A stretch of 64,000 nt of DNA from IMG/VR virus record IMGVR_UViG_3300028025_000093, positions 88,650 through 152,649 of that record, one strand, 5' to 3'. This document shows, one piece after another, positions 15,326 to 64,000 of the stretch. Source of the DNA: a virus. Its lineage: Duplodnaviria > Heunggongvirae > Uroviricota > Caudoviricetes. The notes under the pieces are model-generated. The model saw nothing but the letters and a program-made list of their open reading frames with translations, did not search any database and was not told the DNA's origin. A program made the position numbers and the translations under genes. Numbering within the stretch: the stretch's first letter is position 1; every line of letters begins with the position of its first letter.

Positions 15326-15979
15326 ATGAGACTAATCAAAGAAGTTTTCGACACAACAAACGTAATCGTTGAATCGAAGCTAGGTAAACCAAAACAATAT
15401 TTTATTGAAGGTGTTTTCCTTCAATCTGAATTGCAAAACCGTAACGGACGTATGTATCCAGAGAAAATTATGGATAAAGAAGTTAGCCGTTATATGGAAA
15501 GTTATGTTGCCAAGAATCGTGCTTATGGAGAACTAGGTCATCCAGATTCACCTTCTATTAATTTAGATCGTGTTTCTCACTTGATCGTAGATCTACGTAA
15601 AGAAGGCACTAACTACATCGGTCGAGCAAAAATTTTAGATACTCCAATGGGTCAAATCGCCAAAGGTCTTTTAGATGGTGGTGCTAACCTTGGTGTTTCT
15701 AGTCGAGCACTTGGTTCTTTACAAATGAACAAAGAAGGTGTTCAAGTGGTACAAGACGACTTCATGCTGTCAACAGCAGCAGATATCGTTGCGGACCCAT
15801 CCGCTCCAGATGCTTTCGTTCAAGGTATTATGGAAAGCAAAGAGTGGGTATTTGTTGATGGAAAGTTTGTGGAGAAGCATATTGAAGAGGCACGTAAGAG
15901 TATTATGAAAGCCACTTCCAAGAATCTAGATGAAGCGAAAATACTCGCTTTTCAGAATTTTCTGAGAGAAATCAGATAA
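15326..15979 (+). CDS. prohead core protease (gp21-like)
   Basis: The N-terminus and the 'GELGHPDSP…DRVSH' region match the T4 gp21 family. It sits immediately upstream of the scaffold and major capsid genes. Confidence 0.85.
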   Translation: MRLIKEVFDTTNVIVESKLGKPKQYFIEGVFLQSELQNRNGRMYPEKIMDKEVSRYMESYVAKNRAYGELGHPDSPSINLDRVSHLIVDLRKEGTNYIGRAKILDTPMGQIAKGLLDGGANLGVSSRALGSLQMNKEGVQVVQDDFMLSTAADIVADPSAPDAFVQGIMESKEWVFVDGKFVEKHIEEARKSIMKATSKNLDEAKILAFQNFLREIR

Positions 15980-50253: not shown

Positions 50254-50930
50254 TGTGCGCAGTCATTGGAGCCATCCTGCAGAAACCAACTCTGCAGGAT
50301 TTTACTATGTTGCATCGTGTATTCCTAGAGTCCAAGATTCGAGGTATGCACGCCACTGGAATATCCTATGTCAAGAATGACCGAGTTGTTACTGAGAAGC
50401 ACCCTGTTCCTGCCAATGAGTTTCCTTTTAATTTTGCAGAGTATGTTAATGAAGATGGGAATCTCTACCTTATTGGTCACTGTCGTTACAGCACTAGCGA
50501 TCTTGAGTTTAATCAGCCAATTGGTAATGATAAACACTCAATAGTTCACAATGGAGTTATCACTCAAGAACTACCAGAACGCTGGAAAGAATTATATAAT
50601 TATGAGTGCACGACCAAGAATGATAGTGAGTTAGTCTTACACTCTGATTCGCCACTTGAAGAGTTTCCTGATATGTCTATGGGTGTTTGTGAATTAACCA
50701 GTGACAAGAAACTACTTGCTTATCGTAATGGCAAACGTCCATTATACTTGACTAGTATTTCAAATGGGTGTATAATTACTTCTACTGCTGATATTATTAA
50801 ACGTGCAGAAGTGGAAGGGTTTCCTATTAACCTTTTATCAAATCATTACACTACATTTGATAGTGACCTAACTATGATTGTTGAAAAGGTTAATATTGAT
50901 GCTGTTGATTACCAACTAATAGGTGACTGA
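50253..50930 (+). CDS. class-II (Ntn) glutamine amidotransferase domain protein
   Basis: N-terminal catalytic 'MCAVIG', plus 'IRGMHATG', 'GHCRYSTSD' and 'VHNGVITQ', which match the PurF/GlmS/AsnB GATase-II signatures. Confidence 0.75.
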   Translation: MCAVIGAILQKPTLQDFTMLHRVFLESKIRGMHATGISYVKNDRVVTEKHPVPANEFPFNFAEYVNEDGNLYLIGHCRYSTSDLEFNQPIGNDKHSIVHNGVITQELPERWKELYNYECTTKNDSELVLHSDSPLEEFPDMSMGVCELTSDKKLLAYRNGKRPLYLTSISNGCIITSTADIIKRAEVEGFPINLLSNHYTTFDSDLTMIVEKVNIDAVDYQLIGD

Positions 50931-51805
50931 TGAATTATCCAAAAGAAAAATTTACATACGGTATGGAAATAGAGTGGGGTGATGTTCCTCGCTCTTTTTC
51001 AATTCCAGAACATCTTGGTACTTGGGAATACTCCGAGCGAGATATTATTAACCTACGAGATCCATACAAGAACGTATGTGCAGATCCGTTGGGTGAAGAT
51101 CCGCCATTTGGTGGAGAGATTAATACCAAGCCAACTCGTACTTGGGCTGGTCAAGTAGAACGATACTTTGAACTACAGAAACTGTTTGAAGATGCTGGTC
51201 ATCCACCAACAGTAGGTGTTACTGCACATACACACATACACTGTCGCATTCCTGGATTGCGTGATGATATCGATGCACTAAAACGATTGACCAAATACAT
51301 CAAAGAAAACCAAGCAACAACAGTTGATCGTGTTTATGGTTTCTATGACCACAATCAAATGAAAGGTGCCAAAGGTGCCAAGATGTATCTAAAGTTTGAT
51401 GGTGGTCGTACAATGCCAGATTATATGAGCGATAATATTATCAATCTAGCCACTGACTTCAACTCTTTCATTAAGATGCACGCTGCAGGTAAAGATGGTG
51501 TTTCAATGGGTCGCCCATTCCGATATGCCATTAATATGTACGCACTCAAACACATTGATACTGTGGAGTTTCGTTTATTCCGTGGTACACTGGATAAAGT
51601 AGAATTGGAATCTTGCTTCCGTTTCGTTGAAGACTTCCTTGATGCTGCGCTAAATGATGGACCAAGTGTTGACGATCTGATCAATACCAATGGTTATAAG
51701 TTTCCACCGATGCAGTGGGATCTTGCTCAATTCATTGGATGGGAAAAGACAAAGCACCCAGAAGATCGTGGTGAGAAAGTGAGAACTCTTGTTGAGGTTG
51801 AGTAA
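50930..51805 (+). CDS. glutamine-synthetase-like amidoligase family protein
   Basis: 'FTYGMEIEW' N-terminal region and overall size typical of phage and bacterial amidoligases. Assigned from my recollection of family signatures. Confidence 0.5.
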   Translation: MNYPKEKFTYGMEIEWGDVPRSFSIPEHLGTWEYSERDIINLRDPYKNVCADPLGEDPPFGGEINTKPTRTWAGQVERYFELQKLFEDAGHPPTVGVTAHTHIHCRIPGLRDDIDALKRLTKYIKENQATTVDRVYGFYDHNQMKGAKGAKMYLKFDGGRTMPDYMSDNIINLATDFNSFIKMHAAGKDGVSMGRPFRYAINMYALKHIDTVEFRLFRGTLDKVELESCFRFVEDFLDAALNDGPSVDDLINTNGYKFPPMQWDLAQFIGWEKTKHPEDRGEKVRTLVEVE

Positions 51806-51887
51806 ATGTTCAAGATGTGATTTTGTAAATAGTATATCTACCGATAAGGGAGATAACTTTGCAAAGACATTTATTGCCAAAGCAGAT

Positions 51888-52340
51888 ATGCAAGACCAAT
51901 GGGAGTATTGCATAGGTGCTTGGGATGGTAGCGAATTAACAGCTGCCATTATAACTACCATATCCAAGAATAAACCCCACGTGGCTAACCTACAACTCTT
52001 GCATACCTTTGTAAAACACCGAGGAAAGGGAGCTGCCAGGATCCTCTGCGAGGACTCTTTAAAGCGTGCTAGAGCGTCTGGAGCGACTTACTTTAGGGTA
52101 TCCTCAGAGAAGTCTGCCGTAGGCTTCTACGAGCGTCTAGGGTTCCGATTCTGGGGTTCCCAAAAGAGTGGTTGCCAGCTATCCATCTTTAGGATAGGGG
52201 GAGATACCTTCCTACAGGGCGACTACGACCTTTCTGACACCACCATCAATAAAGCGGTCAACCGAAAGGGTAAGGGAGGTTGTACGACCCTCTACGACCT
52301 TGCAAAGAGCCAAAATGGGGTCAAAATAGACGATTTTTGA
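51888..52340 (+). CDS. GNAT-family N-acetyltransferase with anomalous GC-rich composition
   Basis: 'FVKHRGKGAARIL' acetyl-CoA-binding motif followed by 'GFYERLGF'. About 50% GC with rare AGG/CGA/GGG codons, against about 37% GC for the rest of the window. The ORF track uses TTG at 51789; the first ATG is at 51888. Confidence 0.55.
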   Translation: MQDQWEYCIGAWDGSELTAAIITTISKNKPHVANLQLLHTFVKHRGKGAARILCEDSLKRARASGATYFRVSSEKSAVGFYERLGFRFWGSQKSGCQLSIFRIGGDTFLQGDYDLSDTTINKAVNRKGKGGCTTLYDLAKSQNGVKIDDF

Positions 52341-52354
52341 GTCAAATTTAGCTT

Positions 52355-52382
52355 TACTTTAATTGCAAAATAAGGTATAATA
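52355..52382 (+). promoter_or_regulatory. sigma70-like promoter (TTTACT-N16-TATAAT) driving the HNH gene
   Basis: 'AGCTTTACTTTAATTgcaaaataaggTATAAT' is a member of the conserved promoter family. Confidence 0.5.
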
Positions 52383-52408
52383 AAGGTTGGATAATTGAGG
52401 AATTTATT

Positions 52409-52945
52409 ATGAGAAATTTAAACCTTGAAGAACTAATAGAATTTAATTTTAATTCTGACTTGGTGAACCAAGAAGAATCAAGACGTGAGTACATATCTGA
52501 AAAAAATCAAGAAAATCATAAGACTTGGGGTGATACTAAAGAGCGTTGGATAAAGCGACATCTTTATAAAGGGACACAAAGTAATGCTAGAGAAAAGAAA
52601 GTAGCCAATACTTTATCTCCAGTAGCCTTAAGTAAAATGTGGGATTTACAAAAAGGTAAATGTGCTATTAGTGGAGTGGAGTTAGTTTGGGGTGAAACTG
52701 ATAACATCCGAAGAGCATCAGTTGATCAAATATATCCATCAGGTGGCTATACATTAGAAAATACATGGCTAGTTTGTTCAGGAATAAATTTTTTGAAAAA
52801 TAAATTTTCACTGACAGATCTTCTTGAGATATACCCACAAGCAATAAAATCTTCTTTATTTAACGAGGTATATGAAGCTACTTTAAATGATAAAGTACCT
52901 ACACACAATAGTCCTATTATAAACGACCTTCAATTACTCACTTAA
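52409..52945 (+). CDS. putative HNH-family homing endonuclease
   Basis: 'GKCAISGVEL…SVDQIYPSGGYTLENTWLVCSGINFLKNK' resembles the HNH_3-type core. AT-rich, with its own promoter, inserted inside a functional gene cluster. Confidence 0.4.
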   Translation: MRNLNLEELIEFNFNSDLVNQEESRREYISEKNQENHKTWGDTKERWIKRHLYKGTQSNAREKKVANTLSPVALSKMWDLQKGKCAISGVELVWGETDNIRRASVDQIYPSGGYTLENTWLVCSGINFLKNKFSLTDLLEIYPQAIKSSLFNEVYEATLNDKVPTHNSPIINDLQLLT

Positions 52946-53964
52946 TGGACTATAGACTATCACAAAATCGTAGAGAAGCATTCATACGCTGGTATGCGTG
53001 GTCGTTGAAGTATGACGACTGCGACCCAGCAGTATGGGCGACTAACTATATAAACGATCGTTACGAGCATAATGACGAGCAGAAACTTTGGTTGTGCTGG
53101 CTATACGGTAATACATACTATCTTCCAACTGCTTGGGTATTGATGAACGAGTTTCCCGACTATGAACTGGCAACTGTTGATCGTATGACTCAGTGGAATA
53201 CTACCAACTACAAGCGACTGCGTTATCAAACTGACACAAAGTGGAACAAGGGACATTTGCCAACCATGTTCGAATCTTATCAAAAGTATATTGGCAATCA
53301 AACTCAACGAGAAAAGATAGAGTCATTATATGGAAACAATGAGAAGGCAAACTTTGATAACTTGTGGGAGAGCGTTAAGTCTAGCTTGCATAAGTTTGGT
53401 CGTTACAGTACTTGGTTTTATCTTCAGCATCTTAAGCATACCGCTGGTGTTCGGATCGATCCTACTTCTCTCATGCTGGACGATTATGATGGCTCTCGCT
53501 CTCATCGTAATGGATTACTTTATGCCCTCGGACAAGAAGACAGTGTGGATAGAAAACTCACTGCAATGGAGTATGCAAATCTTGAGTCACAAGCCCAAGA
53601 GATTCTTGCAGAGACGAAAGCAAGATTTCCAGAACTCATATCGTCAATAGATTATTTCACTATGGAAACGTGTCTGTGTTCTTATAAGAAAATCTTTAGA
53701 GAACACCACGGAAGATACCTTGGGTATTACCTAGATCGTCAAGCTGAAGAGATTATCAAAGTTGAAGGCGATGGATGGTATGGAATTGATTGGGATGTGC
53801 TTTGGCAATCCCGAGAAGAAACTATTGATTTACGTCTAGATCACAAACGTGGTATAGACAAAGAAAAGTTTAAGTATTTTATCAATACAGGTAAACTTGA
53901 TAATCTCGAGTGGATGTTTGATGATGAACAGCGACAACTTATTGGACTAGAGGAATTTTTATGA
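52945..53964 (+). CDS. hypothetical protein; candidate aGPT-pyrophosphorylase-like transferase of the base-modification cluster
   Basis: Assigned from gene context only: it is translationally coupled (ATGA) to the downstream small P-loop kinase and sits in a cluster with a dioxygenase, a GATase and an amidoligase. I recognise no sequence motif with confidence. Confidence 0.3.
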   Translation: MDYRLSQNRREAFIRWYAWSLKYDDCDPAVWATNYINDRYEHNDEQKLWLCWLYGNTYYLPTAWVLMNEFPDYELATVDRMTQWNTTNYKRLRYQTDTKWNKGHLPTMFESYQKYIGNQTQREKIESLYGNNEKANFDNLWESVKSSLHKFGRYSTWFYLQHLKHTAGVRIDPTSLMLDDYDGSRSHRNGLLYALGQEDSVDRKLTAMEYANLESQAQEILAETKARFPELISSIDYFTMETCLCSYKKIFREHHGRYLGYYLDRQAEEIIKVEGDGWYGIDWDVLWQSREETIDLRLDHKRGIDKEKFKYFINTGKLDNLEWMFDDEQRQLIGLEEFL

Positions 53965-54500
53965 GAAAATTGATTGCAGTTGGTGGTTCTCCAGGAACAG
54001 GTAAAACTACCTTATTCCGTAAGTTTATGGAAGGTAAAACTTGGGAGCGAGTTGAGCCCAAGAAAATGTTACCTGCACTCTACTGTGCAGAATTGGATTT
54101 GTATATCCTAGGTAAGTACGAAGATGGCGAAACATTCGCTGGCACAGATCGTTTAAGTATGGCTGTTCAACCAGTGGCTCAGGAATTCGTCAAGGAAACT
54201 ACTTCAAACATCTTATTTGAAGGCGACCGAATCTTTAACCAGTCTTTCCTAGAGTTTGCCATGGGATTGCCCGATACTGATCTACAAGTGATTTTCCTAA
54301 AGGTTCCCAAGGAAATGCTTGAGCAAAGGTATAAGGATCGTGGATCCGACCAATCGGAGATATTCCTAAAGGGTCGCAATACTAAATATAATAACCTATT
54401 GTCTAATTTTGAGTTGATGCCATATATTACTGAGTTTGTGAATACTAACTTAGAGGAGCAGGGGAAAGTTCTAACCTTTTTAGAAGGTCAATTAGGATAA
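53961..54500 (+). CDS. small P-loop kinase; candidate 5-hydroxymethyluracil DNA kinase (5-HMUDK-like)
   Basis: Walker A 'GGSPGTGKTT', about 180 aa. The assignment as a DNA-base kinase is from context. Confidence 0.45.
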   Translation: MRKLIAVGGSPGTGKTTLFRKFMEGKTWERVEPKKMLPALYCAELDLYILGKYEDGETFAGTDRLSMAVQPVAQEFVKETTSNILFEGDRIFNQSFLEFAMGLPDTDLQVIFLKVPKEMLEQRYKDRGSDQSEIFLKGRNTKYNNLLSNFELMPYITEFVNTNLEEQGKVLTFLEGQLG

Positions 54501-54502
54501 GG

Positions 54503-55228
54503 ATGGAACTTTCTAGGGATATGAATTACCTAGAAACCGCAGACTTCAATTGGATGGAAATGCTCAATTTCTATGAGCAGCCATTTAGAGCTAAACTCAT
54601 TCCATCAAAAGTGTGGCGAGATCTCGACAAGTATAAAAATGATAGCGTAGGTCTAGCCAACTATACTAAAAAGTGGCGTACCAAAATAGAGTTTAGAAAA
54701 GCACCATCTAAGGCAAAGATCTGGAAAACCTACACATCAATTGGTGGTGAATATTCCCCAGATGAACGTCAGTGTACCCTACAAATCTACACGCTAGAAT
54801 TTGATAAATTCCCTTTCACTAAAGTATCTTGGGATAGATTTAAGTATCGCTTTATTCAAACTCTGATGCACGAGTTGATTCACTTTATGCAGTACGATCG
54901 TCGTGGTGATGAGTGGAGCAATTACGTACTACCACATAAGAAAGTTGGTCAAGCCAAGAAAGACGCTGAGCGTAAATACCTTTCTGAGTTTGATGAGATA
55001 CAAGCATACGCTCATTGTGTTTATCTGGACTTTAAAATGTTCCGTCCAAGATTAGAAGTAGAAACACTAATGAACCGAGCAGGACAATATACAGATTCAA
55101 AGACTCTACATTACTTTCTAAAGACATTCAACTACGACTACAAGAATAACGCTGCAATTCCAAAGATAATGCAGCAGATTATTAAGTGGGACAACAAGTA
55201 TCAACGATACGTCAATAAGCCTAAATAG
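54503..55228 (+). CDS. HExxH motif protein (putative zincin-like metallohydrolase)
   Basis: 'TLMHELIHFMQYD' followed by 'SEFDEIQAY'. Confidence 0.35.
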   Translation: MELSRDMNYLETADFNWMEMLNFYEQPFRAKLIPSKVWRDLDKYKNDSVGLANYTKKWRTKIEFRKAPSKAKIWKTYTSIGGEYSPDERQCTLQIYTLEFDKFPFTKVSWDRFKYRFIQTLMHELIHFMQYDRRGDEWSNYVLPHKKVGQAKKDAERKYLSEFDEIQAYAHCVYLDFKMFRPRLEVETLMNRAGQYTDSKTLHYFLKTFNYDYKNNAAIPKIMQQIIKWDNKYQRYVNKPK

Positions 55229-55246: not shown

Positions 55247-56623
55247 ATGGCAACAGATTACTCAAAACTAGCAGCATCCGCCAAAAAGATGGTAGATTAT
55301 CTTTCCACCAAAGGTGTTAAGGTAACTTTAAAATCTTCAAGGTATCAAGCTCAAATTAAAGCAGTTGAGATTGCATTCTCAGGCACACTTGACGCATTCT
55401 TAAAAAGTGTTGGTATAACTGCAACAGTTACTGATCTTAGTGTCACTGAAGAAAAAGCAATTTCTGGTAAGTACAAAGCCAAGCTAATGACTCTTACCAA
55501 AGTACTCGGCACTATTGCCAAGGGCGAAACCTTTTACATTGTAAATACCTATACTGAAAAGGGTACGCTAAAAACAAAAGATTTAGCACCAGAAAAGTTT
55601 AATCTCACTACTAGCAAATATACAACGCTAGAATCTCTAGACAAAGCTGTGTTGAATGGTATCAAAGAAAACGCTACCCTAGCAGCAGACATTAAAGTTG
55701 TTCTAACAGAATTATATAAAACAGTTAGCACAAACAAAAACCCCAAAGATATTATTCCAATGACTGCGCCAGCAAAGAAATCATTTGCTGGAGTTAAGCC
55801 ACAAGACAAACAAGCTATTGGTAAAGACTTTGGTGAAGTTCTTTCTATGCGTTGGTACTTGACTCAACCATTTGCTTCTACTTGGCAACAAGCATTCTTT
55901 TCAGATATTAGTAATGAAGCATTGGTAGACTTTGTTGTTATGAAGAAATCTGGCAAAGAAACTATTCGTACTGATATATCAGCAAAGTTTGAAGAAGGTG
56001 CTGCACCATCCATTGGTGCCATTGTTGATAATATTGATAAAGTTTACAAAGCTCCAAATAAAGAAGAAGCTGTTGTAATTAACGTACTAAAAGCATTGGC
56101 TGGCAAAAACGATAATACATCAACTAAGATTTTAGCTGCCATGAAATCTCTTAATCTGCCAGCGTATACCACATTAAAGAAAACTATTGGTGCTAAAGGC
56201 AACTTTACTATTCAAGATATTTCTGCGCATATTCAACAGATTGCCAAAGTAGGTAAAACTGATAAAGCAAGAATTAAATTATTTAAATCTACATATGAAG
56301 AGTTTTATAATGTGCTTGGTAAAAACGCAAGTGATGATTCTGTTAATATTGTAATGACACCAACTACATATAAAAAGTATTATTCATTGGTAATGGCACC
56401 TATGGGTTATGCGTTAGTTGATTATATGAATAAACAACCACAATATCAAGAAGTGTTAAATAAGATTAGTCAGCATATGAAAACTGAACAAGTATATCTA
56501 TACTTCTCTGGTGATAATCTAGAGTTTAAGAAAAAGTTATTTTCAAAAGCTGAGTTTAAATTTGCTTACGGAGCCAACGCCAAAGACTCTGATAATACAG
56601 GCATCAAGTTCTTTATGAAATAA
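55247..56623 (+). CDS. hypothetical Lys-rich protein (458 aa)
   Basis: Long ORF; no recognisable motif. Confidence 0.4.
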   Translation: MATDYSKLAASAKKMVDYLSTKGVKVTLKSSRYQAQIKAVEIAFSGTLDAFLKSVGITATVTDLSVTEEKAISGKYKAKLMTLTKVLGTIAKGETFYIVNTYTEKGTLKTKDLAPEKFNLTTSKYTTLESLDKAVLNGIKENATLAADIKVVLTELYKTVSTNKNPKDIIPMTAPAKKSFAGVKPQDKQAIGKDFGEVLSMRWYLTQPFASTWQQAFFSDISNEALVDFVVMKKSGKETIRTDISAKFEEGAAPSIGAIVDNIDKVYKAPNKEEAVVINVLKALAGKNDNTSTKILAAMKSLNLPAYTTLKKTIGAKGNFTIQDISAHIQQIAKVGKTDKARIKLFKSTYEEFYNVLGKNASDDSVNIVMTPTTYKKYYSLVMAPMGYALVDYMNKQPQYQEVLNKISQHMKTEQVYLYFSGDNLEFKKKLFSKAEFKFAYGANAKDSDNTGIKFFMK

Positions 56624-56645
56624 CCCTCACTATTTGAGGGGAATA
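56622..56645 (+). terminator. terminator-like hairpin (CCCTCA-ctattt-TGAGGG), related to the 26260 module
   Basis: Shares 'TAACCCTCA…TTGAGGG' with the hairpin at 26260. The T-run is weak. Confidence 0.4.
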
Positions 56646-56655
56646 CATAAATCGC

Positions 56656-56684
56656 TTGACTTTAATTGCAAGATAGGGTATAAT
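56656..56684 (+). promoter_or_regulatory. consensus sigma70 promoter (TTGACT-N17-TATAAT)
   Basis: 'CGCTTGACTTTAATTgcaagatagggTATAAT' is the best match to the consensus within the promoter family. Confidence 0.65.
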
Positions 56685-56690
56685 AAAGGT

Positions 56691-57920
56691 ATGAAGTTGA
56701 AAAGTTTAAAGGGTTTTATAGTCGAAGAAAAGAATACCCATATGGAACATCTAGAAGATCTAGTGTTCAATGAAGGTACAGTCGGCACTCAAAAAGCCAT
56801 CAACTTTATCAAAGACCTCCGTGATATGTTGGCAGGTCACAGCAAAACAAAAATCTCAGCCACGGTAAAGTGGGATGGTGCACCAGCTATCTTTGCTGGT
56901 ATCGATCCAAGAGATGGTAAGTTCTTTATCGCCAAAAAAGGTGTCTTCAATAAAGAACCAAAGATTTATAAAACTGCTGCAGAGATCGATGCTGATACTG
57001 ATGGCGATCTAGCCGCAAAATTTAAAGTTGCTCTTACCGAGTTCAAGAAACTTGGTATCAAGTCTGGTGTTTACCAAGGCGATCTAATGTTTACCAAAAA
57101 TGATTTAAAGAAACAAGTCATTGATGGTGAATCATACATTACCTTCCATCCAAACACTATCGTTTATGCTGTTCCAGAAAACAGCGATCTAGCCACAAAA
57201 GTCAAGAAAGCAAAGATTGGTGTTGTTTGGCATACGACTTATACTGGAACTTCATTTGAAACAATGAAAGCATCTTTTGGTAAAGGTATCGTTGAGCACT
57301 TAGTTGCTTCACCAAGTATCTGGATGGATGACGCCACATACAAAGATTATTCTGGCACTGCTTCTTTTACTGCCGATGAAACAGTGAAACTAAATTCTAT
57401 TATTACGTCAGCTCAAGCCAAGTTAAATAGTATTACGCCAGCAGCTTTAAATTCTATTAGTCAAAACGAAGAACTATTACTTCAGATTAAAACATACAAC
57501 AATACAAAGATTCGTTCTGGTGAAGGATTCTCAAATACCCGAGAACATGTTAAAGGATTGTTTGATTATATCCACGCTAAATTAGAACCAAAGCAAAAGA
57601 CCGAAAAGGGTAAAGCTACTGGTGAAGCCAAGCGTAAAGAAGTATTAAAATACTTTGCTGAAAATAAACCAAGTGACGTTCAAGCAATCTTTGATCTAGT
57701 TAATATTCTTACTGATGCCAAAGAAATGGTTGTCAACAAGATGAATCAAGCTGGTCATATTTCTACGTTTCTTAAAACTGCAAGTGGATTTAAAACAACT
57801 AGCGTTGAGGGATTTGTTGCTATTGATAGACTAAAGGGTGGTGCTGTTAAGGTTATCAATCGTATGGAATTCAGTCGTTCAAATTTCTCTGCTGATATTA
57901 TCAAAGGATGGCAACGATGA
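56691..57920 (+). CDS. putative ATP-dependent polynucleotide ligase (RNA ligase-like) of the nucleotidyltransferase superfamily
   Basis: The ATG at 56691 follows the promoter and RBS. Candidate motif I 'TVKWDGAP' (KxDG). The ORF-track start at 56634 lies upstream of the promoter. Confidence 0.4.
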   Translation: MKLKSLKGFIVEEKNTHMEHLEDLVFNEGTVGTQKAINFIKDLRDMLAGHSKTKISATVKWDGAPAIFAGIDPRDGKFFIAKKGVFNKEPKIYKTAAEIDADTDGDLAAKFKVALTEFKKLGIKSGVYQGDLMFTKNDLKKQVIDGESYITFHPNTIVYAVPENSDLATKVKKAKIGVVWHTTYTGTSFETMKASFGKGIVEHLVASPSIWMDDATYKDYSGTASFTADETVKLNSIITSAQAKLNSITPAALNSISQNEELLLQIKTYNNTKIRSGEGFSNTREHVKGLFDYIHAKLEPKQKTEKGKATGEAKRKEVLKYFAENKPSDVQAIFDLVNILTDAKEMVVNKMNQAGHISTFLKTASGFKTTSVEGFVAIDRLKGGAVKVINRMEFSRSNFSADIIKGWQR

Positions 57921-58255
57921 AATATACTTTATTGGCTGCACTATTTTTAAGTGGGTGTTCAGTAATACTACCAATTAAACACGACCCAGCAATGTTCGAT
58001 AATCTGGTTCAAGTTAAGGTTGCTGTAGATAAACTAAAATGTGATAACAAAGACTGGACAGATGCACAAAATAAGATTACGCATCTAAAGGTTTATACTG
58101 AAATGAGAAAAGACCCACAAGCTAATTCTGTGAGTCAACTTGGTGAAGCAATCGAGAAAGCAAAACAATCTAATAACAAGACGTTTTGCGAGTCACTTCT
58201 AAGAATCAACAAGACTCGTATTGACGTTATCACTGACGCATGGAGAGGCAGATGA
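57917..58255 (+). CDS. lipoprotein (signal peptide with lipobox LSGC)
   Basis: 'MKYTLLAALFLSGCSV…'. The ATG at 57917 overlaps the upstream stop. Confidence 0.55.
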   Translation: MKYTLLAALFLSGCSVILPIKHDPAMFDNLVQVKVAVDKLKCDNKDWTDAQNKITHLKVYTEMRKDPQANSVSQLGEAIEKAKQSNNKTFCESLLRINKTRIDVITDAWRGR

Positions 58256-58485: not shown

Positions 58486-58540
58486 GAGATAAAGAAACGC
58501 TAAATAATAGGTTGAAACTACAATTTTATAGATGGATTAA

Positions 58541-61500
58541 ATGAAGAAATACAGACAATTAATAAAAGAACTTCCTACAAAGAAAGTAGTATTTGCCTTT
58601 GGTCGATTCAATCCACCAACGACAGGTCACGAATTGCTTGTAAAGACAGTCAAAAAGCTGGCTAGCACTGGTAGTGCTGACCACGCCATCTATGCTTCAA
58701 AAACTCAAGATGCTAAAAAGAATCCACTCTCAGTGGATAAAAAAGTTCAATACCTTGGCAAAATGTTCCCAAGCACAAAGTTTGTGGCTGCCAACCAAAA
58801 CGTAAGAACTTACATCGAAGCAGTTAAAGAACTCAATAAAAAATACAAAAACCTTGTTATGGTCGCAGGTAGTGATCGTGTTCAAGCGTATCAAGAATTA
58901 CTAAACAAATACAACGGCAAAGAATTTCACTTTGATACTATTGAAGTAGTATCTGCAGGTGAGCGTGATCCAGACGCAGATGATGCTTCTGGTATGTCTG
59001 GAACAAAGATGCGTAGTCTAGCTGCAAAAGGTGACTACGCTACATTCAAGAAAGGTCTTCCTTCTACTCTACGTGACATTGACGGTAAGCGTTTGATGAA
59101 TGACGTGCGTCTAGGTATGGGTATTGAAGCATTGAAAGAACAAGTTCGTTTTGACATTGATGCTCTACGTGACGAATTCTTTAAGGGTAAGATCTACACA
59201 GTTGGTCAATTTGTTGAGTCAGACAATCAACGTTACGAAATCATTGATCGTGGTAGTAACTATCTTGTACTAGTTAATAGCACAGGAGAAACTTGTAAGA
59301 AGTGGATTCAAGATGTTACATTATCTGAAGACCAATTACAAGAAGATGTTACAGGTGGAACTGCACCAGAACAAATTACATTCAAAGGTTACACAACCAA
59401 AAACTTTGCTCGCACTGCTGATGCAGCAAAAGCATTCCAAGATACAATCTCTCGTGCTTCAGAAAAAGATCCAGTGGCAGTTTTGAATGCTCTAAAGGCA
59501 ACTGATACTTATATGGGTATCAATGATCGTCACATTGCTGGCGAAGAATTAACTGATGCTGAGATTACTCAGTGGAAAGAAGCCAGAGTTAAAGCACAAG
59601 AATCATTGGCTCGTGTTGGAGAATTTATGCATCATATGGATTACTTCCATACGCATGAACACGAACTAGAAGGTCTATTAACAAATTTCAAAGATAGTGG
59701 TAAAGGCGAATTCATGGAAGCGTTATCAGATAAAACATTACGTCCAACAGACAAGATTAAAGTGGCACGTATTATTGCTACTATGTTGGGAGTTGATAAA
59801 GTTGAAGCAACTTCAAATCCAGAGTTGTTGGTTAATACTGCATTGCGTAGAATTAAAACCAAGACGCTAAATCCTGAAGCACTTAACATTGTAAATAAGA
59901 TGTTGGCTTTGGCTAATGAAATGGGTATTGATTACGATACAAACCTTATCCCACAGAAATTACAAGTTACAGAAGATGCTGTGGTTAAGTTTGATCCAAA
60001 GAAAACAAATAATATCGCTCAAGGTATTATGACGTTTGACGATTATCAAAAGTTAAAGAACATGACCAATAAAGCTGGTCATAGTCTTGGGCATACCGAT
60101 AATGACAACTTGCGTAAGATGAAAGTCAAGCACATGACTGAAGCCAGTGCATTGGAAAGATTCCGTGCCGCAGCTGCTGAGCGTGAAAAGAAACACGATG
60201 AGATTGAGCGTAAGCGTAAAGAAGCTGCTGCCCAAGGCAAAGAAAACATGTCTGGTGCCATTGATCGTTTAGAAAAGCATCTAAACAAAGAAGGTCTAGA
60301 TGAAATTGCAATGTACGATTTGCCAAACAATGATCGTATGGATAAAAAAGGTATTGCGGTAAATCCATTCCGCAAAGAAAAAACTGCTTCAGATTTGGCT
60401 AGAATTGCTAAAGCAAAGGCAGCAGAAAAGAATCAAAAGGGCATATACAAACCACAATCTGCAGGGCAAAGAAAAGCTACTGTCAACGACTTAATGAAAT
60501 TGGTTAAGCACATTGGGGAAAGTGCCCATGTAGAATTTCGCATCGACAATCGTGATAAAGTAAGTGGTGACCATAAGTCTACGTTTGCAGATCACGAAGC
60601 AAAAGTATCAGATACAACTGATAAAGCAACTTACGTAAAAGTACCATCTCATAAAGCAGATTCATTTAAATCTGCCATGAAATCTAAGCATGGGGTTCGT
60701 GTAGAGTTGGCTGAATCACGTGGACTTGCCGATAAGTATTACAGCATGGCTCAGGATCGTAAAGAAACTGCGCATGAAAACAAAGGCAATCACGAAGTAT
60801 ATCATACACATATGGCAGATCATCATGACGCCATGAGTCGTTACCATGAAGAACTTGGTCAGCATTCTCTTGCTCAAGCCCATGCTGATAAAGCAGAAAT
60901 TCACCATGAAAAGTCTATGGAGAAACCTAAAAAAGGTTTAGCTGAATCTGCTTGGGGTAAGGATAAAATGACTAACCTACGTCAAGCCCACGATCGTCAT
61001 ATGGAAAAGGCACTGGCTGCAAATAAAGCTGGTGATGATGAAGCAGTTAAAACTCACCAAAGAAAAATGCAGACGATCCAGACTCAGATGCAGAAACTTA
61101 AACAGAACGAAGAAGTAGATAATATTCAAGAAGATGAAATAGATACTACGGATTATAAGTTATCCCCAAGTGGTCGTAAAGTTCGTGCTCATCGTATCAA
61201 AGTTGGTGACAATAAAAAAGATGACGATGTGGAAGATATGAAAGAAGCTACCATGTCTGATGCAGATATGAAAGAGCGTGAGCGTATCGTTAAGGGTATG
61301 AAAAAGAATATCGCTGGTTTTAAAGCACGTTATGGTAAAGATGCTGAATCAGTAATGTACGCCACTGCCACTAAAGCAGCAATGAAAGAAGAAACAGAGC
61401 AGTTCGAAGAAGTTGATATGTCTCATATTGAAGACCATAAAGATCAGCAAGAACAAAACATAGAAGACCAGTTAATGGCTGAGTTAGATTTAACTGATGA

Positions 61501-61987
61501 ACAAATCGATCACATTGTTGATTCCGCTCAAGAAGATGACTTTATCGAACAGTATGATGATGAAGAATTGGCAATTGTTGATGAAGAAAGTGGCGAAGAA
61601 ATTGAAGAAGAACAAGTTAATGAACAAACATTAATGGAAGTTCTATCCAAAGTAGAACGTATCCGTGCTCGTTTACGTTTTGCTAAAACCAAAGGTAAGC
61701 GTGAGCGCAAAGCACAAATTGCCCTAAAGACACGTTCAACAAATGCCGTTGCAAATAAACGTGCACGTCGTCTGGCAATTAAGTTAATGAAGAATCGTTT
61801 ACTGCGTGGTCGTGATGCAAACAAAATCTCTATCGGTGAGAAAGAACGCATTGAACGCATAATCCAAAAACGTAAAGTAATCGTTGGACGTATCGCCATG
61901 AAGTTGGTACCACGCATCCGTCAGATTGAGAAGTCACGTTTATCACATACTAAATTTACAAAGGGTGCTCCAAATGTTGCGTTTTAA
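58541..61987 (+). CDS. 1148-aa protein with an N-terminal (H/T)xGH nucleotidyltransferase (NMNAT/cytidylyltransferase-like) domain fused to a very long charged, His-rich low-complexity region
   Basis: 'FGRFNPPTTGHELLV' (HxGH-type motif) and 'SGMSGTKMR' (ISST-type motif) within the first 170 aa. The remaining 950 aa are K/E/D/A/M-rich, with His-rich stretches such as 'HTHMADHHDAMSRYHEELGQH'. Confidence 0.6.
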   Translation: MKKYRQLIKELPTKKVVFAFGRFNPPTTGHELLVKTVKKLASTGSADHAIYASKTQDAKKNPLSVDKKVQYLGKMFPSTKFVAANQNVRTYIEAVKELNKKYKNLVMVAGSDRVQAYQELLNKYNGKEFHFDTIEVVSAGERDPDADDASGMSGTKMRSLAAKGDYATFKKGLPSTLRDIDGKRLMNDVRLGMGIEALKEQVRFDIDALRDEFFKGKIYTVGQFVESDNQRYEIIDRGSNYLVLVNSTGETCKKWIQDVTLSEDQLQEDVTGGTAPEQITFKGYTTKNFARTADAAKAFQDTISRASEKDPVAVLNALKATDTYMGINDRHIAGEELTDAEITQWKEARVKAQESLARVGEFMHHMDYFHTHEHELEGLLTNFKDSGKGEFMEALSDKTLRPTDKIKVARIIATMLGVDKVEATSNPELLVNTALRRIKTKTLNPEALNIVNKMLALANEMGIDYDTNLIPQKLQVTEDAVVKFDPKKTNNIAQGIMTFDDYQKLKNMTNKAGHSLGHTDNDNLRKMKVKHMTEASALERFRAAAAEREKKHDEIERKRKEAAAQGKENMSGAIDRLEKHLNKEGLDEIAMYDLPNNDRMDKKGIAVNPFRKEKTASDLARIAKAKAAEKNQKGIYKPQSAGQRKATVNDLMKLVKHIGESAHVEFRIDNRDKVSGDHKSTFADHEAKVSDTTDKATYVKVPSHKADSFKSAMKSKHGVRVELAESRGLADKYYSMAQDRKETAHENKGNHEVYHTHMADHHDAMSRYHEELGQHSLAQAHADKAEIHHEKSMEKPKKGLAESAWGKDKMTNLRQAHDRHMEKALAANKAGDDEAVKTHQRKMQTIQTQMQKLKQNEEVDNIQEDEIDTTDYKLSPSGRKVRAHRIKVGDNKKDDDVEDMKEATMSDADMKERERIVKGMKKNIAGFKARYGKDAESVMYATATKAAMKEETEQFEEVDMSHIEDHKDQQEQNIEDQLMAELDLTDEQIDHIVDSAQEDDFIEQYDDEELAIVDEESGEEIEEEQVNEQTLMEVLSKVERIRARLRFAKTKGKRERKAQIALKTRSTNAVANKRARRLAIKLMKNRLLRGRDANKISIGEKERIERIIQKRKVIVGRIAMKLVPRIRQIEKSRLSHTKFTKGAPNVAF

Positions 61988-62354
61988 AGAATACATCCAA
62001 GAATCAAAGACATGTAACTGTTGGAATGGTTACAAACGTGTTCCAGGTACTAAGCCATGTGAACCAGGTTCTTGTGTAAAAGAAGAAGTTATGGATGAAG
62101 CTGCAGTTGACGCCAAAGGACACAAAAGTTCTACTGGTGGTTTAACTCAAAAGGGTCGTGATGCTTATAATGCCAAAGGTGCCAATCTACAAGCACCAGT
62201 TACTACCCCACCATCAAAGTTAAAGGCTGGTAGCAAAGCATATAATCGTCGTAAGTCTTTCTGTGCTCGTATGAGTGGCGTAGATGGTCCAATGAAAGAC
62301 GAAAAGGGTCGCCCAACTCGCAAAGCGTTGGCACTACGTAAGTGGAATTGCTAA
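61974..62354 (+). CDS. hypothetical Cys-containing small protein
   Basis: 'CNCWNGYKRVPGTKPCEPGSC'. The ATG at 61974 overlaps the upstream gene. Confidence 0.35.
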   Translation: MLRFKEYIQESKTCNCWNGYKRVPGTKPCEPGSCVKEEVMDEAAVDAKGHKSSTGGLTQKGRDAYNAKGANLQAPVTTPPSKLKAGSKAYNRRKSFCARMSGVDGPMKDEKGRPTRKALALRKWNC

Positions 62355-62845: not shown

Positions 62846-63295
62846 ATGGAAGAATTAAAATTATCCCTCAAAATAACATTGGCAAATACATTCTTAATGT
62901 ATTTCAAAACACAATCCTATCACTGGAATGTTGAAGGTATGTTGTTTCCAATGTTCCACGATTTCTTTGGTGAGATCTACCAAGAAGTTTACGGAGCAGT
63001 TGATCATCTCGCAGAAGAAATTCGTAAACTTGATGATTACGCTCCGATGTCTCTTGATGAGTTGCACAGTACTGCAACTGTTAAAGAAGATGTAGTAAGA
63101 CCAGTACTATTGAGAGATATGCTGGAGAACTTGCAACAAGCCAACCAAGAAGTCTTGGATAGCCTAAATAAAGTGTTCGATCTAGCCACAGCAGAAAAAG
63201 AGCAAGGACTTGCTGATTTTGCTGGCAGCAGAATAGATGCTCATAAGAAACATGCTTGGATGATTCGTTCAAGTCTTAAAAAGATAGAGGAATAA
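62846..63295 (+). CDS. Dps-like ferritin-superfamily protein
   Basis: 'QSYHWNVEGMLFPMFHDFFGE…DHLAEEIRKL' matches the Dps signature 'AHWN(V/M)(K/R)G.NF..(L/V)HE…D.(I/L)AER'. Confidence 0.6.
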   Translation: MEELKLSLKITLANTFLMYFKTQSYHWNVEGMLFPMFHDFFGEIYQEVYGAVDHLAEEIRKLDDYAPMSLDELHSTATVKEDVVRPVLLRDMLENLQQANQEVLDSLNKVFDLATAEKEQGLADFAGSRIDAHKKHAWMIRSSLKKIEE

Positions 63296-63296
63296 A

Positions 63297-64000
63297 ATGA
63301 AGTTTAAAACATTTTTAGAGATGGTTAATAAGTCTGACATCCCAGCGTACTTACGCAAGAATGACAAGATGACCACTAAGGATCTAGAAAAAGAACGTAC
63401 AAAGAATCGTTCCCATCCAGAAACTATTAAAAAGATTAACGGCACTGTTCAAGAAGAAGTTCTTGACGAAGCCAACCATCGCGAGTTTGCTTCTCAAGGT
63501 AAGATGCACCCAGACATGGCTAAGCACATGAAGACTGGTGAGCATATGGATTACTATGAGCCAAAGACTGGTGACAAAGTACATGGTAAAGTAATGAAGA
63601 ACGATGGTAAAGAAGTTCACGTTAAACAAACCCATGACTCTTACGATCCAAAAAAAGTTGGAACTGTTCATAAGTTCACTATTGCTTCTAAGTTAGAAGA
63701 AGGTTACTACGAAAAGCCAGCTTCTGCTTATCGTCGTAAGGGTGATGAAATCGGTGGTGGTTCTTCTAAGAATGATGTTCCATTCGATGGACCATACACA
63801 AAGACTCCAGCAACTACAAAAGACAAGTCTGGTGCAGTTCACACAGCAATGAGTCGTGCAAAGCACCTAGCTAAACAAGCTATGAAGAACGTCAAAGAAG
63901 AAGCAGAACAAATTGATGAGATCTCAAAGAAAACAGTTGACGATTATAAAACAATGGTTGCTATCCGCACATTATCTGCAATTCAAAAAGGTGAAACTGA
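63297..64000 (+). CDS. hypothetical Lys-rich protein, N-terminal fragment (3' end lies outside the window)
   Basis: Open frame from ATG 63297 to the window edge, preceded by a GAGGAATAAA RBS. Confidence 0.4.
   Translation, partial: MKFKTFLEMVNKSDIPAYLRKNDKMTTKDLEKERTKNRSHPETIKKINGTVQEEVLDEANHREFASQGKMHPDMAKHMKTGEHMDYYEPKTGDKVHGKVMKNDGKEVHVKQTHDSYDPKKVGTVHKFTIASKLEEGYYEKPASAYRRKGDEIGGGSSKNDVPFDGPYTKTPATTKDKSGAVHTAMSRAKHLAKQAMKNVKEEAEQIDEISKKTVDDYKTMVAIRTLSAIQKGET

Follow-up and report, generated by a model that had tools for sequence, protein, structure and literature searches.

Gene locus and reading frame

The window, by which we mean the whole 64,000-nucleotide stretch of phage DNA analysed here, carries on its plus strand an open reading frame at 58541-61987 that runs from ATG to stop and encodes a protein of 1148 aa (130 kDa, pI 8.8). 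The gene's setting is that of a replication module and not a structural one, with DNA polymerase, UvsX, gp41 helicase and DNA-modification genes. Its conserved upstream partner is a DUF6267 gene (56691..57920, plus strand, Pfam E-value 1.4e-104), and downstream a DUF6321 gene (61974..62354, plus strand), which probably begins with the ATG at 61974, overlaps the 3' end of the long reading frame by 14 nt. DUF6267 adjoins the nucleotidyltransferase (NTase) gene in cyanophages, lies just upstream of it in HTVC008M, Methylophilales phage Melnitz and Stenotrophomonas phage DLP_6, as in the window, and in phrog_455 occurs as a fusion with the NTase domain. The gene that comes before DUF6267 (458 aa here) does not match the Melnitz gene at that position, nor do the DLP_6 and Melnitz genes match; only those of HTVC008M and Melnitz match mutually. 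This gene is not conserved across relatives and is therefore outside the conserved core. The motifs 'KWDG' and 'EGFV' had made us suspect DUF6267 of being a ligase or capping-type covalent nucleotidyltransferase, and this is unsupported: an AF2 model (pLDDT 74, poor at both motifs) searched with Foldseek against the PDB gave probabilities of 0.10 or lower throughout, and phmmer against the PDB returned nothing. A canonical ATP-dependent DNA ligase is separately encoded by the phage.

A reading frame of this size could be produced by a frameshifted assembly that unites separate genes, a worry raised in the initial sequence-only reading. This can be practically dismissed. The identical 1148-aa protein is found in three independent assemblies (JGI, Logan and ENA contigs, the longest 161.9 kb), and cultured phages with finished genomes carry fused versions as well. 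A query with the tail alone gave 494 homologs, and the best 120 of these 494, which are 600-1464 aa long, retain both ends in one frame without exception (120/120). It is true that the tail is a separate gene in some relatives and that a frameshift disrupts the NTase part of one metagenomic relative, L010. The splitting of the gene among related phages, which had been named as a sign of an artefact, thus does occur, but the break coincides with a domain boundary and represents natural fission. The 1148-aa reading frame is a real gene. No near-identical DNA was found among GenBank phages, no PADLOC defence model matched, and a literature search on the terms 'cytitidyltransferase' and 'DUF6267' found nothing.

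The nucleotidyltransferase domain

Structural modeling identifies residues 15-195 (58583..59125, plus strand) as a Rossmann domain of the HxGH nucleotidyltransferase superfamily, NMNAT/PPAT-like and closest to NadM and the archaeal NMNATs. Foldseek matched the model, which has the Rossmann-like alpha/beta fold of NMNAT, PPAT and GCT, to NadD, NMNAT, PPAT and FAD synthetase with a probability of 1.0 and target-relative TM scores of 0.5-0.68, so that the proposed NTase fold was recovered. The two motifs on which that proposal had been built are both present, 'TTGHELL' at aa 27-33 and 'SGTKMR' at aa 153-158. The first belongs to an (H/T)xGH signature after beta1 (P25-P26-T27-T28-G29-H30) in which G29 and H30 are invariant, and the second (S153-G-T-K-M-R158) is of the ISSTxxR or KMSKS-like kind, with S153, M157 and R158 invariant in the homolog alignment. 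Across cyanophage, pelagiphage, methylophage and Stenotrophomonas-phage homologs the forms FGRxNPP(T/H)xGH and SxTKMR are invariant, the first signature residue being T in the window protein and H in cyanophages. The protein also matches phrog_3041 (E-value 7e-68) and phrog_395 (5e-54).

The enzyme part is larger than the 170 aa first allotted to it. The Rossmann domain has a constant companion, a small beta-barrel domain at aa 220-260 (59198..59320, plus strand) with AF2 strands at 224-255 (pLDDT 82-87), and this conserved beta domain, which extends the enzyme part to about aa 260, is also present in P-SSM2, S-SZBM1, HTVC008M, Melnitz and S-RIM2.

The predicted chemistry should be the transfer of a nucleotidyl group to a phosphorylated acceptor, with AMP from ATP as the most likely donation, and the leading candidate reaction would be the conversion of NMN or NaMN to NAD(+) or NaAD. 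The NadM-type and archaeal NMN adenylyltransferases (PDB 2qjt and 1f9a) match it in the first motif, GRF(N/Q)P..xGH, and in the second, S-x-T-x-x-R, at a sequence identity of 13-14%, and the phage protein does not have their Nudix or kinase partner domain. We take the 'GRFxP' form of the motif to be a resemblance to the NadM/archaeal NMNAT subgroup in particular. The structural scores themselves are near-equal for PPAT, NadD and NMNAT and do not discriminate substrate specificity. Several observations weigh against the enzyme assignment. Pfam CTP_transf_like (PF01467) scores 19.1 bits (E-value 0.0016), under its gathering cut-off of 21; the NCBIfam matches are all far under their cut-offs; PDB sequences, queried with the protein and with its profile, gave at best marginal results, with only poly-Q, low-complexity and meaningless S-layer CWB2 and Hsp70 matches; and no NAD-salvage partner (NAMPT, Nudix, RNK) is among the annotated genes of the 64-kb window. 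Many homologs do have a precomputed match to PF01467.

Anatomy of the tail

Between the enzyme part and the tail is a linker, LSEDQLQE (aa 261-268, 59321..59344, plus strand), which holds two (L/I)-x-E sites and is the place where the gene is split in other lineages; 44 of 59 homologs have (L/I)xE there, and the relatives that have no enzyme begin at 'M..EDIQPGYAP'. It is followed by a helical domain at aa 290-470 (59408..59950, plus strand; pLDDT 80-92) with a His cluster (H331, H364, H365, H370, H372 and H374) conserved at 78-100%. The middle, aa 566-965 (60236..61435, plus strand), is a hypervariable mosaic of an alpha/beta module (660-725), a His-rich helical bundle (726-858) and disordered spacers, about 30% of it being disordered. 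AF2 confidence is high at aa 740-790 (pLDDT 90-96) and below 50 at aa 581-647, 858-905 and 931-973. This middle differs even where both ends of the relatives compared agree at 99-100% identity, and relatives of 720-756 aa lack it. On sequence comparison, the middle evolves fast by gain and loss of modules and both ends stay fixed. The conserved C-terminal module consists of an acidic segment (aa 961-1040, 61421..61660, plus strand; net charge -28, pI 4.05) and an Arg/Lys-rich helical domain (aa 1041-1148, 61661..61984, plus strand; net charge +29, pI 12.0) in which many Arg and Glu are invariant. Searching with a profile built on this module recovered 1448 cluster representatives, always with the module at the extreme C-terminus. 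It has no similarity to the phage's own scaffold (gp22) and core protein.

The tail had initially been described as a low-complexity region without globular-looking motifs, disordered or coiled-coil. Its composition is as described, dominated by K (11.6%), A (10.8%), E (9.7%), D (7.9%) and M (4.0%) over aa 271-1148, with 4.1% H. This part holds 36 of the 39 His of the protein and no Cys. The remainder of the description fares less well, and a globular enzyme with a disordered, His-rich, possibly metal-binding or phase-separating tail is a very unlikely account of the protein. In its favor, when the tail is divided into 88 blocks of ten residues, 24 of them (about 27%) have a pLDDT below 50, there are five disordered stretches of 23-48 residues each, and His reaches 10% at aa 701-860. 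However, 47 of the 88 blocks (53%) have a pLDDT of at least 70, the predicted helix content is 58%, packed as bundles or hairpins, and the Shannon entropy in 40-aa windows is 3.2-3.9 bits, which is near normal and not low complexity in the strict sense. The conservation is also domain-like, 23 of the last 140 residues being invariant. According to these models the tail is a series of folded modules with flexible spacers, several of the modules being strongly conserved. The conserved His clusters would still be compatible with metal binding.

This anatomy also bears on the idea that the protein is mainly a structural one inside the head, acting like the T4 internal proteins in DNA condensation, core assembly or ejection, and that its NTase fold is a non-catalytic module for binding nucleotides or DNA. 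Such a role would suit the pI of 12 of the C-terminal 108 aa, the occurrence of the C-terminal module in many proteins without an NTase, the few homologs with degenerate catalytic motifs (for example 'CYSEFQPPTVVHEQL') and the variable middle, which recalls the published rapid turnover of T4 internal-protein genes. We nevertheless consider it quite unlikely, given the complete Rossmann model, which superposes on active enzymes, and the catalytic signatures, which are invariant from cyanophages to the Stenotrophomonas phage at only 38-50% overall identity to the window protein and therefore argue for selection on catalysis.

Leader, prohead protease and promoter

The first ten residues of the protein, MKKYRQLIKE (58541..58570, plus strand), lie outside the Rossmann fold because beta1 starts at aa 15, and they resemble the capsid-targeting sequence (CTS) of T4, MKTYQEFIAE. 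In T4, residues 4 and 7 are needed for targeting and residues 8 and 10 for processing. The two leaders share 5 of 10 identities and are alike at these functional positions, with Y4 and L7 as targeting determinants and I8-K9-E10 as a gp21-type (L/I)-x-E site. The leader is present in 66 of 69 homologs, with Y (59), F (4) or L (3) at position 4, L (46), F (18) or V (2) at position 7, I (30), L (22) or V (14) at position 8, and E in 62 at position 10. CTS-like leaders are also found in P-SSM2, P-SSM4, S-RIM2, S-SZBM1, Melnitz and DLP_6, and the homolog of the jumbo phage RaK2, which is outside the T4-like group, has none. When every Met of the plus-strand reading frames of the window was scanned with a strict CTS pattern, only the starts of the NTase-tail gene and of DUF6321 (MLRFKEYIQE) matched, and a relaxed pattern applied to 64 genes of four related contigs picked out almost only NTase-tail, DUF6267 and DUF6321 genes. 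DUF6267 of this clade has its own CTS-like leader, which in relatives reads 'MKTLKSFIAEE'. The window further encodes a gp21-type prohead serine protease (15326..15979, plus strand; Pfam Peptidase_S77, E-value 2.5e-37), the expected leader-cleaving enzyme, and a gp22 core scaffold (16024-16941).

A late-promoter-like motif, CTAAATAATA, is located at 58500..58509 on the plus strand, 41 nt 5' of the start codon. Its CTAAATA core has 14 copies in the window, all on the coding strand, including sites 26-59 nt upstream of tail-fibre, tail-tube and tube-like genes, and it is kept at -28 to -41 in the diverged relatives L008, L009 and L010. The canonical T4 late promoter TATAAATA is absent within the window, and CTAAATA appears, from its distribution, to be the late motif that this phage uses. 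The promoter of DUF6267 is sigma70-type and early-looking. The gene goes unnamed in the expression supplements for P-HM2.

Related phages and their virions

Cyanomyophages encode a family of 'cytitidyltransferase' or NMNAT-like proteins, T4-GC190, with the members P-SSM2_194, P-SSM4_155, S-SZBM1_140, S-SCSM1 ORF91, S-CREM2 ORF154 and S-RIM2 SWTG_00144. Their NTase and beta-domain are homologous to those of the window protein at 34-44% identity, and they share with it the DUF6267 upstream neighbor and the CTS-like leader. Most cyanophage versions are 360-425 aa long, the equivalent of the tail being a separate downstream gene, but in S-RIM2 a long charged tail is likewise fused (1021 aa). The His-cluster helical domain and the acidic/basic C-terminal module of the window clade are undetectable in the cyanophage tails. 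An NTase with a C-terminal extension in one gene is also found in HTVC008M gp130 (596 aa), Melnitz gp18 (650 aa) and DLP_6 gp068 (722 aa), and in the two marine phages among these, HTVC008M and Melnitz, the gene comes after the gp41 helicase. These proteins are shorter than that of the window and their tails are largely unrelated to it by sequence; DLP_6 has the conserved basic module, but directly after the NTase instead of at the C-terminus. The first impression that no such architecture is known among T4-like proteins is thus corrected by proteins of 596-722 aa in these three phages and of 1021 aa in S-RIM2.

Products of the T4-GC190 family have been detected in virion preparations. Homologs were found in four cyanophage virion proteomes, namely S-SM1 (T4-GC190), S-SZBM1 (S-SZBM1_140 and its downstream neighbor _139), S-SCSM1 (ORF91) and S-CREM2 (ORF154), and a fifth detection, in S-CBWM1, is known to us through a citation in another paper. 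DUF6267 is not among the proteins detected in the S-SZBM1 virions. The authors of the proteomic papers caution that a virion preparation can be contaminated by soluble proteins of high abundance.

That caution is one reason to consider a cytoplasmic protein, an auxiliary metabolic NMNAT or other small-molecule NTase that works in the infected cell during replication, anchored by its tail to DNA or the replisome, and whose detection in virions is carry-over. The replication genes around it, the early-type promoter of its partner DUF6267 and a basic C-terminal domain that could bind nucleic acid would all agree with this. Against it speaks a CTS-like leader that is kept at functionally mapped positions, is common to three unrelated neighboring families and is missing in homologs of phages outside the T4-like group. 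The conserved late-type promoter and the repeated virion detections also speak against it, and we regard it as rather unlikely.

A probable head-packaged cargo enzyme

The explanation we favor, at a probability of roughly 55%, is that the protein is a cargo enzyme inside the head of a T4-like marine myophage that is packaged, processed by protease and injected. It would be transcribed from the late-type promoter, and the ten-residue leader would then steer the protein into the prohead scaffolding core, where the gp21-type protease would cut the leader off after I8-K9-E10. A second possible target of this protease is the (L/I)-x-E linker at aa 261-268, and cleavage there would separate enzyme and tail. 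The protein would remain in the filled head, where the highly basic C-terminal domain may touch DNA, and would enter the host cell along with the DNA. A virion-internal or injected enzyme had already been guessed in the sequence-only reading, and the guess has gained backing from the leader, the promoter and the proteomes of the homologs. The fold, the motifs, the modular build, the pattern of conservation, the likeness of the leader, the promoter motif and the protease gene are direct observations; packaging, cleavage, injection, the substrate and the role of the tail are inferred. There are also points against packaging: the location in a replication module, the early-looking promoter of DUF6267 and its absence from the S-SZBM1 list, a leader likeness limited to five identities, the carry-over caveat, and a mass of 130 kDa, far larger than that of T4 internal proteins.

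The comparison with T4 helps to place the protein. Like the window locus, the T4 internal proteins come from several leader-bearing genes of unrelated sequence with variable protein bodies, and their ten-residue leaders likewise place an aromatic or hydrophobic residue at 4 and 7 and end in I/L-x-E (8-10). They are, however, small (8-20 kDa), basic and non-enzymatic, and the IPI-III family is defined by being small, highly basic and non-enzymatic, whereas the window protein is large, has an enzyme domain and is only mildly basic. It is thus not a member of this family by comparison, and may act like an internal protein or like Alt. T4 Alt is a head-packaged ADP-ribosyltransferase of the prohead core, which gp21 trims and which acts on the host after injection. 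The concept of a large head-packaged enzyme would be shared, but Alt, an NAD-consuming ART, is unrelated to the NTase in fold and chemistry, and its propeptides differ from the IP-type CTS.

Implications

Comparable fusion architectures were known from cultured phages; what is new here are the CTS-like leaders at the NTase-tail gene, DUF6267 and DUF6321, and the late-type promoter, together with the gp21-type protease of the window and the virion detections of homologs. We tentatively propose, as a possibility that we would not yet count on, that marine T4-like phages keep a fast-evolving 'internal-protein locus' whose products all have T4-type CTS leaders and include a pre-loaded enzyme that makes NAD or transfers nucleotidyl groups. 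In the window its products may be the NMNAT-fold enzyme with its tail, DUF6267, DUF6321 and a large gene at 63297. If this is true, a pre-loaded enzyme would act as soon as the DNA enters the cell, ahead of all phage gene expression, and could be used for blunting NAD-depleting abortive-infection defences or for nucleotidylating a host target. The hypervariable middle of the tail would then record an arms race, as has been suggested for T4's internal proteins.

Ocean cyanomyophages, and relatives of theirs infecting SAR11, OM43 and other heterotrophs, have this enzyme family among their core genes. The family has recurred in virion proteomes without explanation, and a T4-type leader would explain how it enters the particle. 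The C-terminal module, with its 1448 protein clusters, and DUF6267 are sizeable uncharacterised families, and the locus links them to the biology of the head. By means of the leader, foreign proteins could also be loaded into the heads of marine phages. Should the cargo prove to be an active NMNAT, a metabolic or counter-defence enzyme would be carried pre-packaged by viruses that are among the most abundant on Earth.

The ORF and its nucleotidyltransferase domain

The NTase-tail ORF (58541-61987, + strand) runs from ATG to stop as a single protein of 1148 aa, in which a nucleotidyltransferase (NTase) domain is followed by a long tail. The sequence-only reading had raised the worry that so long an ORF was a product of a frameshift or of misassembly. 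This was not borne out, as three contigs from JGI, Logan and ENA data (the longest of 161.9 kb) encode the identical product, and a query with the tail alone found 494 proteins, the best 120 of which, 600-1464 aa long, all carry the N-terminal domain as well.

Of the motifs quoted in that reading, TTGHELL occupies aa 27-33 and SGTKMR aa 153-158. The sequence evidence alone makes a weak to moderate case for NTase identity. Pfam CTP_transf_like matches at E 0.0016 and 19.1 bits, under the 21-bit threshold, the NCBIfam matches to cyt_tran_rel, NadR-NMNAT, NadD and CoaD are all sub-threshold, and in a search of PDB sequences with a profile of diverse homologs NadR reaches E 0.013, PPAT and NMNAT come near E 1, and spurious matches are mixed in. 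The phage families phrog_3041 and phrog_395, both named 'cytidyltransferase', match the domain unambiguously (E 7e-68 and 5e-54). The question of the fold is settled by the predicted structure. With 69 homologs as input, AlphaFold2 gives a model with a pLDDT of 76-92 across aa 11-200, and Foldseek matches it to NadD, NMNAT, PPAT and FAD synthetase at probability 1.0, in agreement with the fold first proposed. The signature residues of FGRxNPP(T/H)xGH and S-x-(S/T)-(K/R)-M-R do not vary among homologs that range from those of cyanophages to that of a Stenotrophomonas phage. Because of the modeled fold match and these invariant residues, we place the protein in the HxGH nucleotidyltransferase superfamily; its nearest subgroup is predicted to be NMNAT. 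A small beta-barrel at aa 220-260 always accompanies the enzyme domain. A few aligned homologs have degenerate catalytic motifs, with deletions near the second signature (e.g. 'CYSEFQPPTVVHEQL'), and since these still hold the ten-residue leader, the beta domain and the tail, they hint that catalysis may be dispensable in some lineages.

A leader resembling the T4 capsid-targeting sequence

The first ten residues, MKKYRQLIKE, resemble the capsid-targeting sequence (CTS) of T4, MKTYQEFIAE, in which residues 4 and 7 hold the targeting information and residues 8 and 10 the information for processing by the prohead protease gp21, which cleaves after (L/I)-x-E. This leader is found in 66 of the 69 homologs, where position 4 is Y in 59, F in 4 and L in 3, position 7 is L in 46, F in 18 and V in 2, position 8 is I in 30, L in 22 and V in 14, and position 10 is E in 62, Q in 2 and A in 2. 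The leader sits ahead of beta1 of the Rossmann fold in the model, and the homolog of the jumbo phage RaK2, which has no leader, begins directly at beta1. Leaders of distant homologs include MKSFSQFLTE (P-SSM2), MKKFSAFLKE (P-SSM4), MKKFSAFLTE (S-RIM2), MRFRQFIIE (S-SZBM1), MKKFSEIIE (Melnitz) and MKNIKDILE (DLP_6). A prohead protease of the gp21 family (Peptidase_S77, E 2.5e-37) is encoded within the window itself.

Two neighboring families start in a similar way. Relatives of the upstream DUF6267 protein begin with MKTLKSFIAEE, identical to the T4 CTS at 7 of 10 positions, and DUF6321 proteins begin with M(I/L)xFKxY(I/L)xE. The DUF6321 gene of the window (61926-62354, + strand, likely start 61974) overlaps the end of the NTase-tail ORF and has the CTS-like leader MLRFKEYIQE; its product also has a Cys-rich 'CNCWNGYKRVPGTKPCEPGSC' motif, which it shares with the tails of some NTase relatives and with S-SZBM1_139, a protein detected in virions. 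When a strict CTS pattern was applied to every Met of the + strand ORFs of the window, it matched at 58541 and 61974 only, and of 10 matches to a relaxed pattern among the 64 genes of four related contigs, 9 fell in the NTase-tail, DUF6267 and DUF6321 families. The large gene that runs past the end of the window (63297-64000, + strand, 537-711 aa in relatives) starts with MKFKTFLE, a possible further capsid-targeting leader, and for this reason the region may be an internal-protein locus. Relatives of this gene start with MQFKSFME or MKSFKDILE. A literature search linking the capsid targeting sequence with cyanophage returned a T4 review only, and recognition of a T4-type leader on the NTase family and its neighbors, by sequence likeness, appears to be new.

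A putative late-type promoter and the genomic setting

The promoter motif CTAAATAATA lies 41 nt upstream of the NTase-tail start codon. CTAAATA is also found ahead of the tail-fibre, tube and tube-like genes, at a distance of 26-59 nt, and the sheath and scaffold genes are preceded by T/ATAAATA variants. All 14 copies of CTAAATA in the whole window are on the coding strand and 7 of them have a start within the next 100 nt, for which the binomial probability is of the order of 1e-5 on our own estimate that about 7% of window positions are so placed. Relatives with an otherwise different spacer sequence still have the motif at -28 to -41. The canonical T4 TATAAATA occurs 0 times in the window against 4.7 expected; CTAAATA, and not TATAAATA, seems to be what this phage uses as its late promoter consensus. 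The putative late-type promoter of the NTase-tail gene likewise appears new.

The window comes from a T4-like myophage with a single coding strand for all genes. Genes for tail fibre, sheath, tube, portal, gp21 protease, gp22 scaffold and gp23 major head protein lie in bases 1-24,000, and UvsW, gp46/47-like, clamp loader, ATP-dependent DNA ligase, gp43 polymerase, UvsX and gp41 helicase genes from about 19 kb onwards. The NTase-tail gene sits in the replication module, which counts against reading its product as head cargo. A Tet/JBP-type DNA base-hypermodification cassette (48946-55228, + strand), directly after the gp41 helicase, separates that gene from the NTase-tail locus. It encodes a Tet/JBP dioxygenase (E 7e-26), ADDT, an amino-acid:DNA transferase (E 1e-22), a glutamine amidotransferase, a GNAT acetyltransferase, an EndoVII/HNH-like nuclease, P-loop nucleotide kinase 3 and two unknown genes. 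The cassette looks like an insertion, because HTVC008M and Melnitz have none in this place, and in them the DUF6267-NTase cassette directly follows gp41. Genes for ADDT and the P-loop kinase occupy the same position in the related contigs L005, L008 and L010, and a Tet/JBP gene does so in L009.

The local order of a variable gene, DUF6267, small genes in some cases, NTase-tail, DUF6321, a ferritin-like gene and the large gene is retained in diverged metagenomic relatives. The variable gene (55247-56623, + strand) here encodes a 458-aa protein without a family match; its counterparts in relatives are 240-458 aa, and a conserved CTAAATA late-type motif (55221-55227 in the window) is always about 26-40 nt upstream. 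Between the DUF6267 and NTase genes lies a gene for a small putative lipoprotein (57908-58255, + strand; signal MKYTLLAALFLSGC, lipobox LSGC), shared by L005. The ferritin/Dps-like gene (62846-63295, + strand; Pfam Ferritin E 4.5e-24) is conserved, closely following the locus in every relative examined.

DUF6267 (56634-57920, + strand, probable true start 56691) is very conserved and extremely common in metagenomic data, with at least 8000 matches at E<=1e-5. Its invariant 'KWDG' and 'EGFVAID' motifs recall covalent nucleotidyltransferases; a search of its AF2 model against the PDB gave no fold match. A hairpin (CCCTCA-CTATT-TGAGGG) and then a near-consensus sigma70-type promoter, TTGACT-17-TATAAT, precede the gene (56624-56684, + strand) and are conserved in L005, L009 and L010. 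As the promoter ends only 7 nt ahead of the ATG, the arrangement implies an early and nearly leaderless transcript, though the protein has a head-targeting-like leader. This conserved promoter, and the fact that DUF6267 is missing from the S-SZBM1 virion proteins, also argue against head cargo; the S-SZBM1 DUF6267 is itself without the leader.

Anatomy of the tail, fusion and fission

The tail had been described as low-complexity, rich in K/E/D/A/M and His, and without globular-looking motifs. The composition holds in outline, with K 11.6%, A 10.8%, E 9.7%, D 7.9%, H 4.1% and M 4.0% over aa 271-1148, a stretch that has no Cys and 36 of the 39 His of the whole protein (up to 10% His in aa 701-860). 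Its entropy, 3.2-3.9 bits in 40-residue windows, is too high for a low-complexity region in the strict sense. Nor does it lack globular parts, since the AlphaFold2 model and the alignment agree on discrete modules, and we defined the parts of the tail where they do. These are a helical domain (aa 290-470, pLDDT 80-92) with a His cluster (H331, H364, H365, H370, H372, H374) conserved at 78-100%, a spacer of low pLDDT (aa 475-521), a predicted long helix (aa 522-564), a mosaic middle (aa 566-965), an acidic segment (aa 961-1040, net charge -28) and an Arg/Lys-rich helical domain (aa 1041-1148, net charge +29, pI 12). The mosaic middle comprises an alpha/beta module (660-725), a His-rich helical bundle (726-858, pLDDT up to 96) and disordered stretches (581-647, 858-905 and 931-973). 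Helix makes up 58% of the modeled tail, and the pLDDT is at least 70 in 47 of its 88 ten-residue blocks and below 50 in 24. On this model the tail is modular, not amorphous. Fold searches with each tail domain returned generic helical proteins only.

The mosaic middle differs even among relatives with both ends 99-100% identical and is wholly missing in relatives of 720-756 aa. The most conserved part is the last ~150 residues, with 23 invariant positions. A profile search for this C-terminal module across 1.84 billion proteins matched 1448 cluster representatives, and in every case the module forms the very C-terminus. Most of these proteins have the NTase, some start exactly at the helical-domain boundary ('M..EDIQPGYAP'), and some have other N-terminal regions.

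The architecture, for which the first reading knew of no parallel among T4-like proteins, has several. HTVC008M gp130 (596 aa), Melnitz gp18 (650 aa) and DLP_6 gp068 (722 aa) are likewise an NTase with an extension and have DUF6267 upstream, and the cultured cyanophage S-RIM2 has a 1021-aa protein annotated 'cytidyltransferase'. The S-RIM2 tail includes a segment that P-SSM4 and P-SSM2, whose NTases are only 383-424 aa, carry as a separate gene directly downstream. Such splitting, which had been regarded as grounds for rejecting the long ORF, is natural fission at a domain boundary. The downstream S-SZBM1_139 contains a small module common to Melnitz gp18 and the 'His' region of relatives, and repeats the acidic-then-basic layout. 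By sequence comparison, fusion and fission of enzyme and charged tail are recurrent, which speaks for a joint action of the two. In DLP_6 the small gene that lies between DUF6267 and the NTase gene (L001 4263-4766) weakly resembles the helical domain of the window protein (E 5e-6), and the one in Melnitz (L003 4600-5001) weakly resembles the C-terminal module (E 6e-4), which suggests module shuffling between adjacent genes. In L010 (5535-6001) a frameshift splits the NTase gene in two, leaving an N-terminal piece of 121 aa and a remainder of 1056 aa; this reflects a sequencing error or a pseudogene.

Virion association and proposed role

By its sequence the protein belongs to the phage family T4-GC190 / phrog_3041, for which virion association has already been reported. 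Proteomics of purified virions found homologs in S-SM1 ('putative citidylyltransferase, T4-GC190'; PMC3037559), S-SZBM1 (PMC9146016; the tail-like S-SZBM1_139 was there too), S-SCSM1 (PMC9602691) and S-CREM2 (PMC10665884), and S-CBWM1 is a further case cited second-hand. The proteomic papers themselves caution that abundant soluble proteins may carry over into virion preparations.

Alongside the observed fold, motifs, leader similarity, promoter motif and phage protease, we infer packaging, cleavage, injection, a substrate and a tail function. The gene would be transcribed late, and the CTS-like leader would bring the protein into the prohead core, where gp21 would remove the leader after E10. 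The protease might also cut the linker at LSE/LQE (aa 261-268), an (L/I)-x-E site kept by 44 of 59 homologs and the place where other lineages split the gene. The protein would then be retained in the DNA-filled head and delivered into the cell along with the DNA, where the NTase could use ATP to convert NMN to NAD, or catalyze some related transfer of an adenylyl group. The proposed mode of action, with the protein carried in the head and addressed there by a cleavable leader, is like that of T4 Alt and the internal proteins (IPs). The protein is not a member of either family, since it differs in size, charge and fold. Its size, well beyond that of the T4 internal proteins, and the failure to find a NAD-salvage partner gene in the 64-kb window both count against the cargo reading.

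The defined tail anatomy, including the very widespread C-terminal module, also appears to be new. Reading the leader as a capsid-targeting signal supplies a mechanism, open to direct test, for a proteomic observation that has recurred without explanation.
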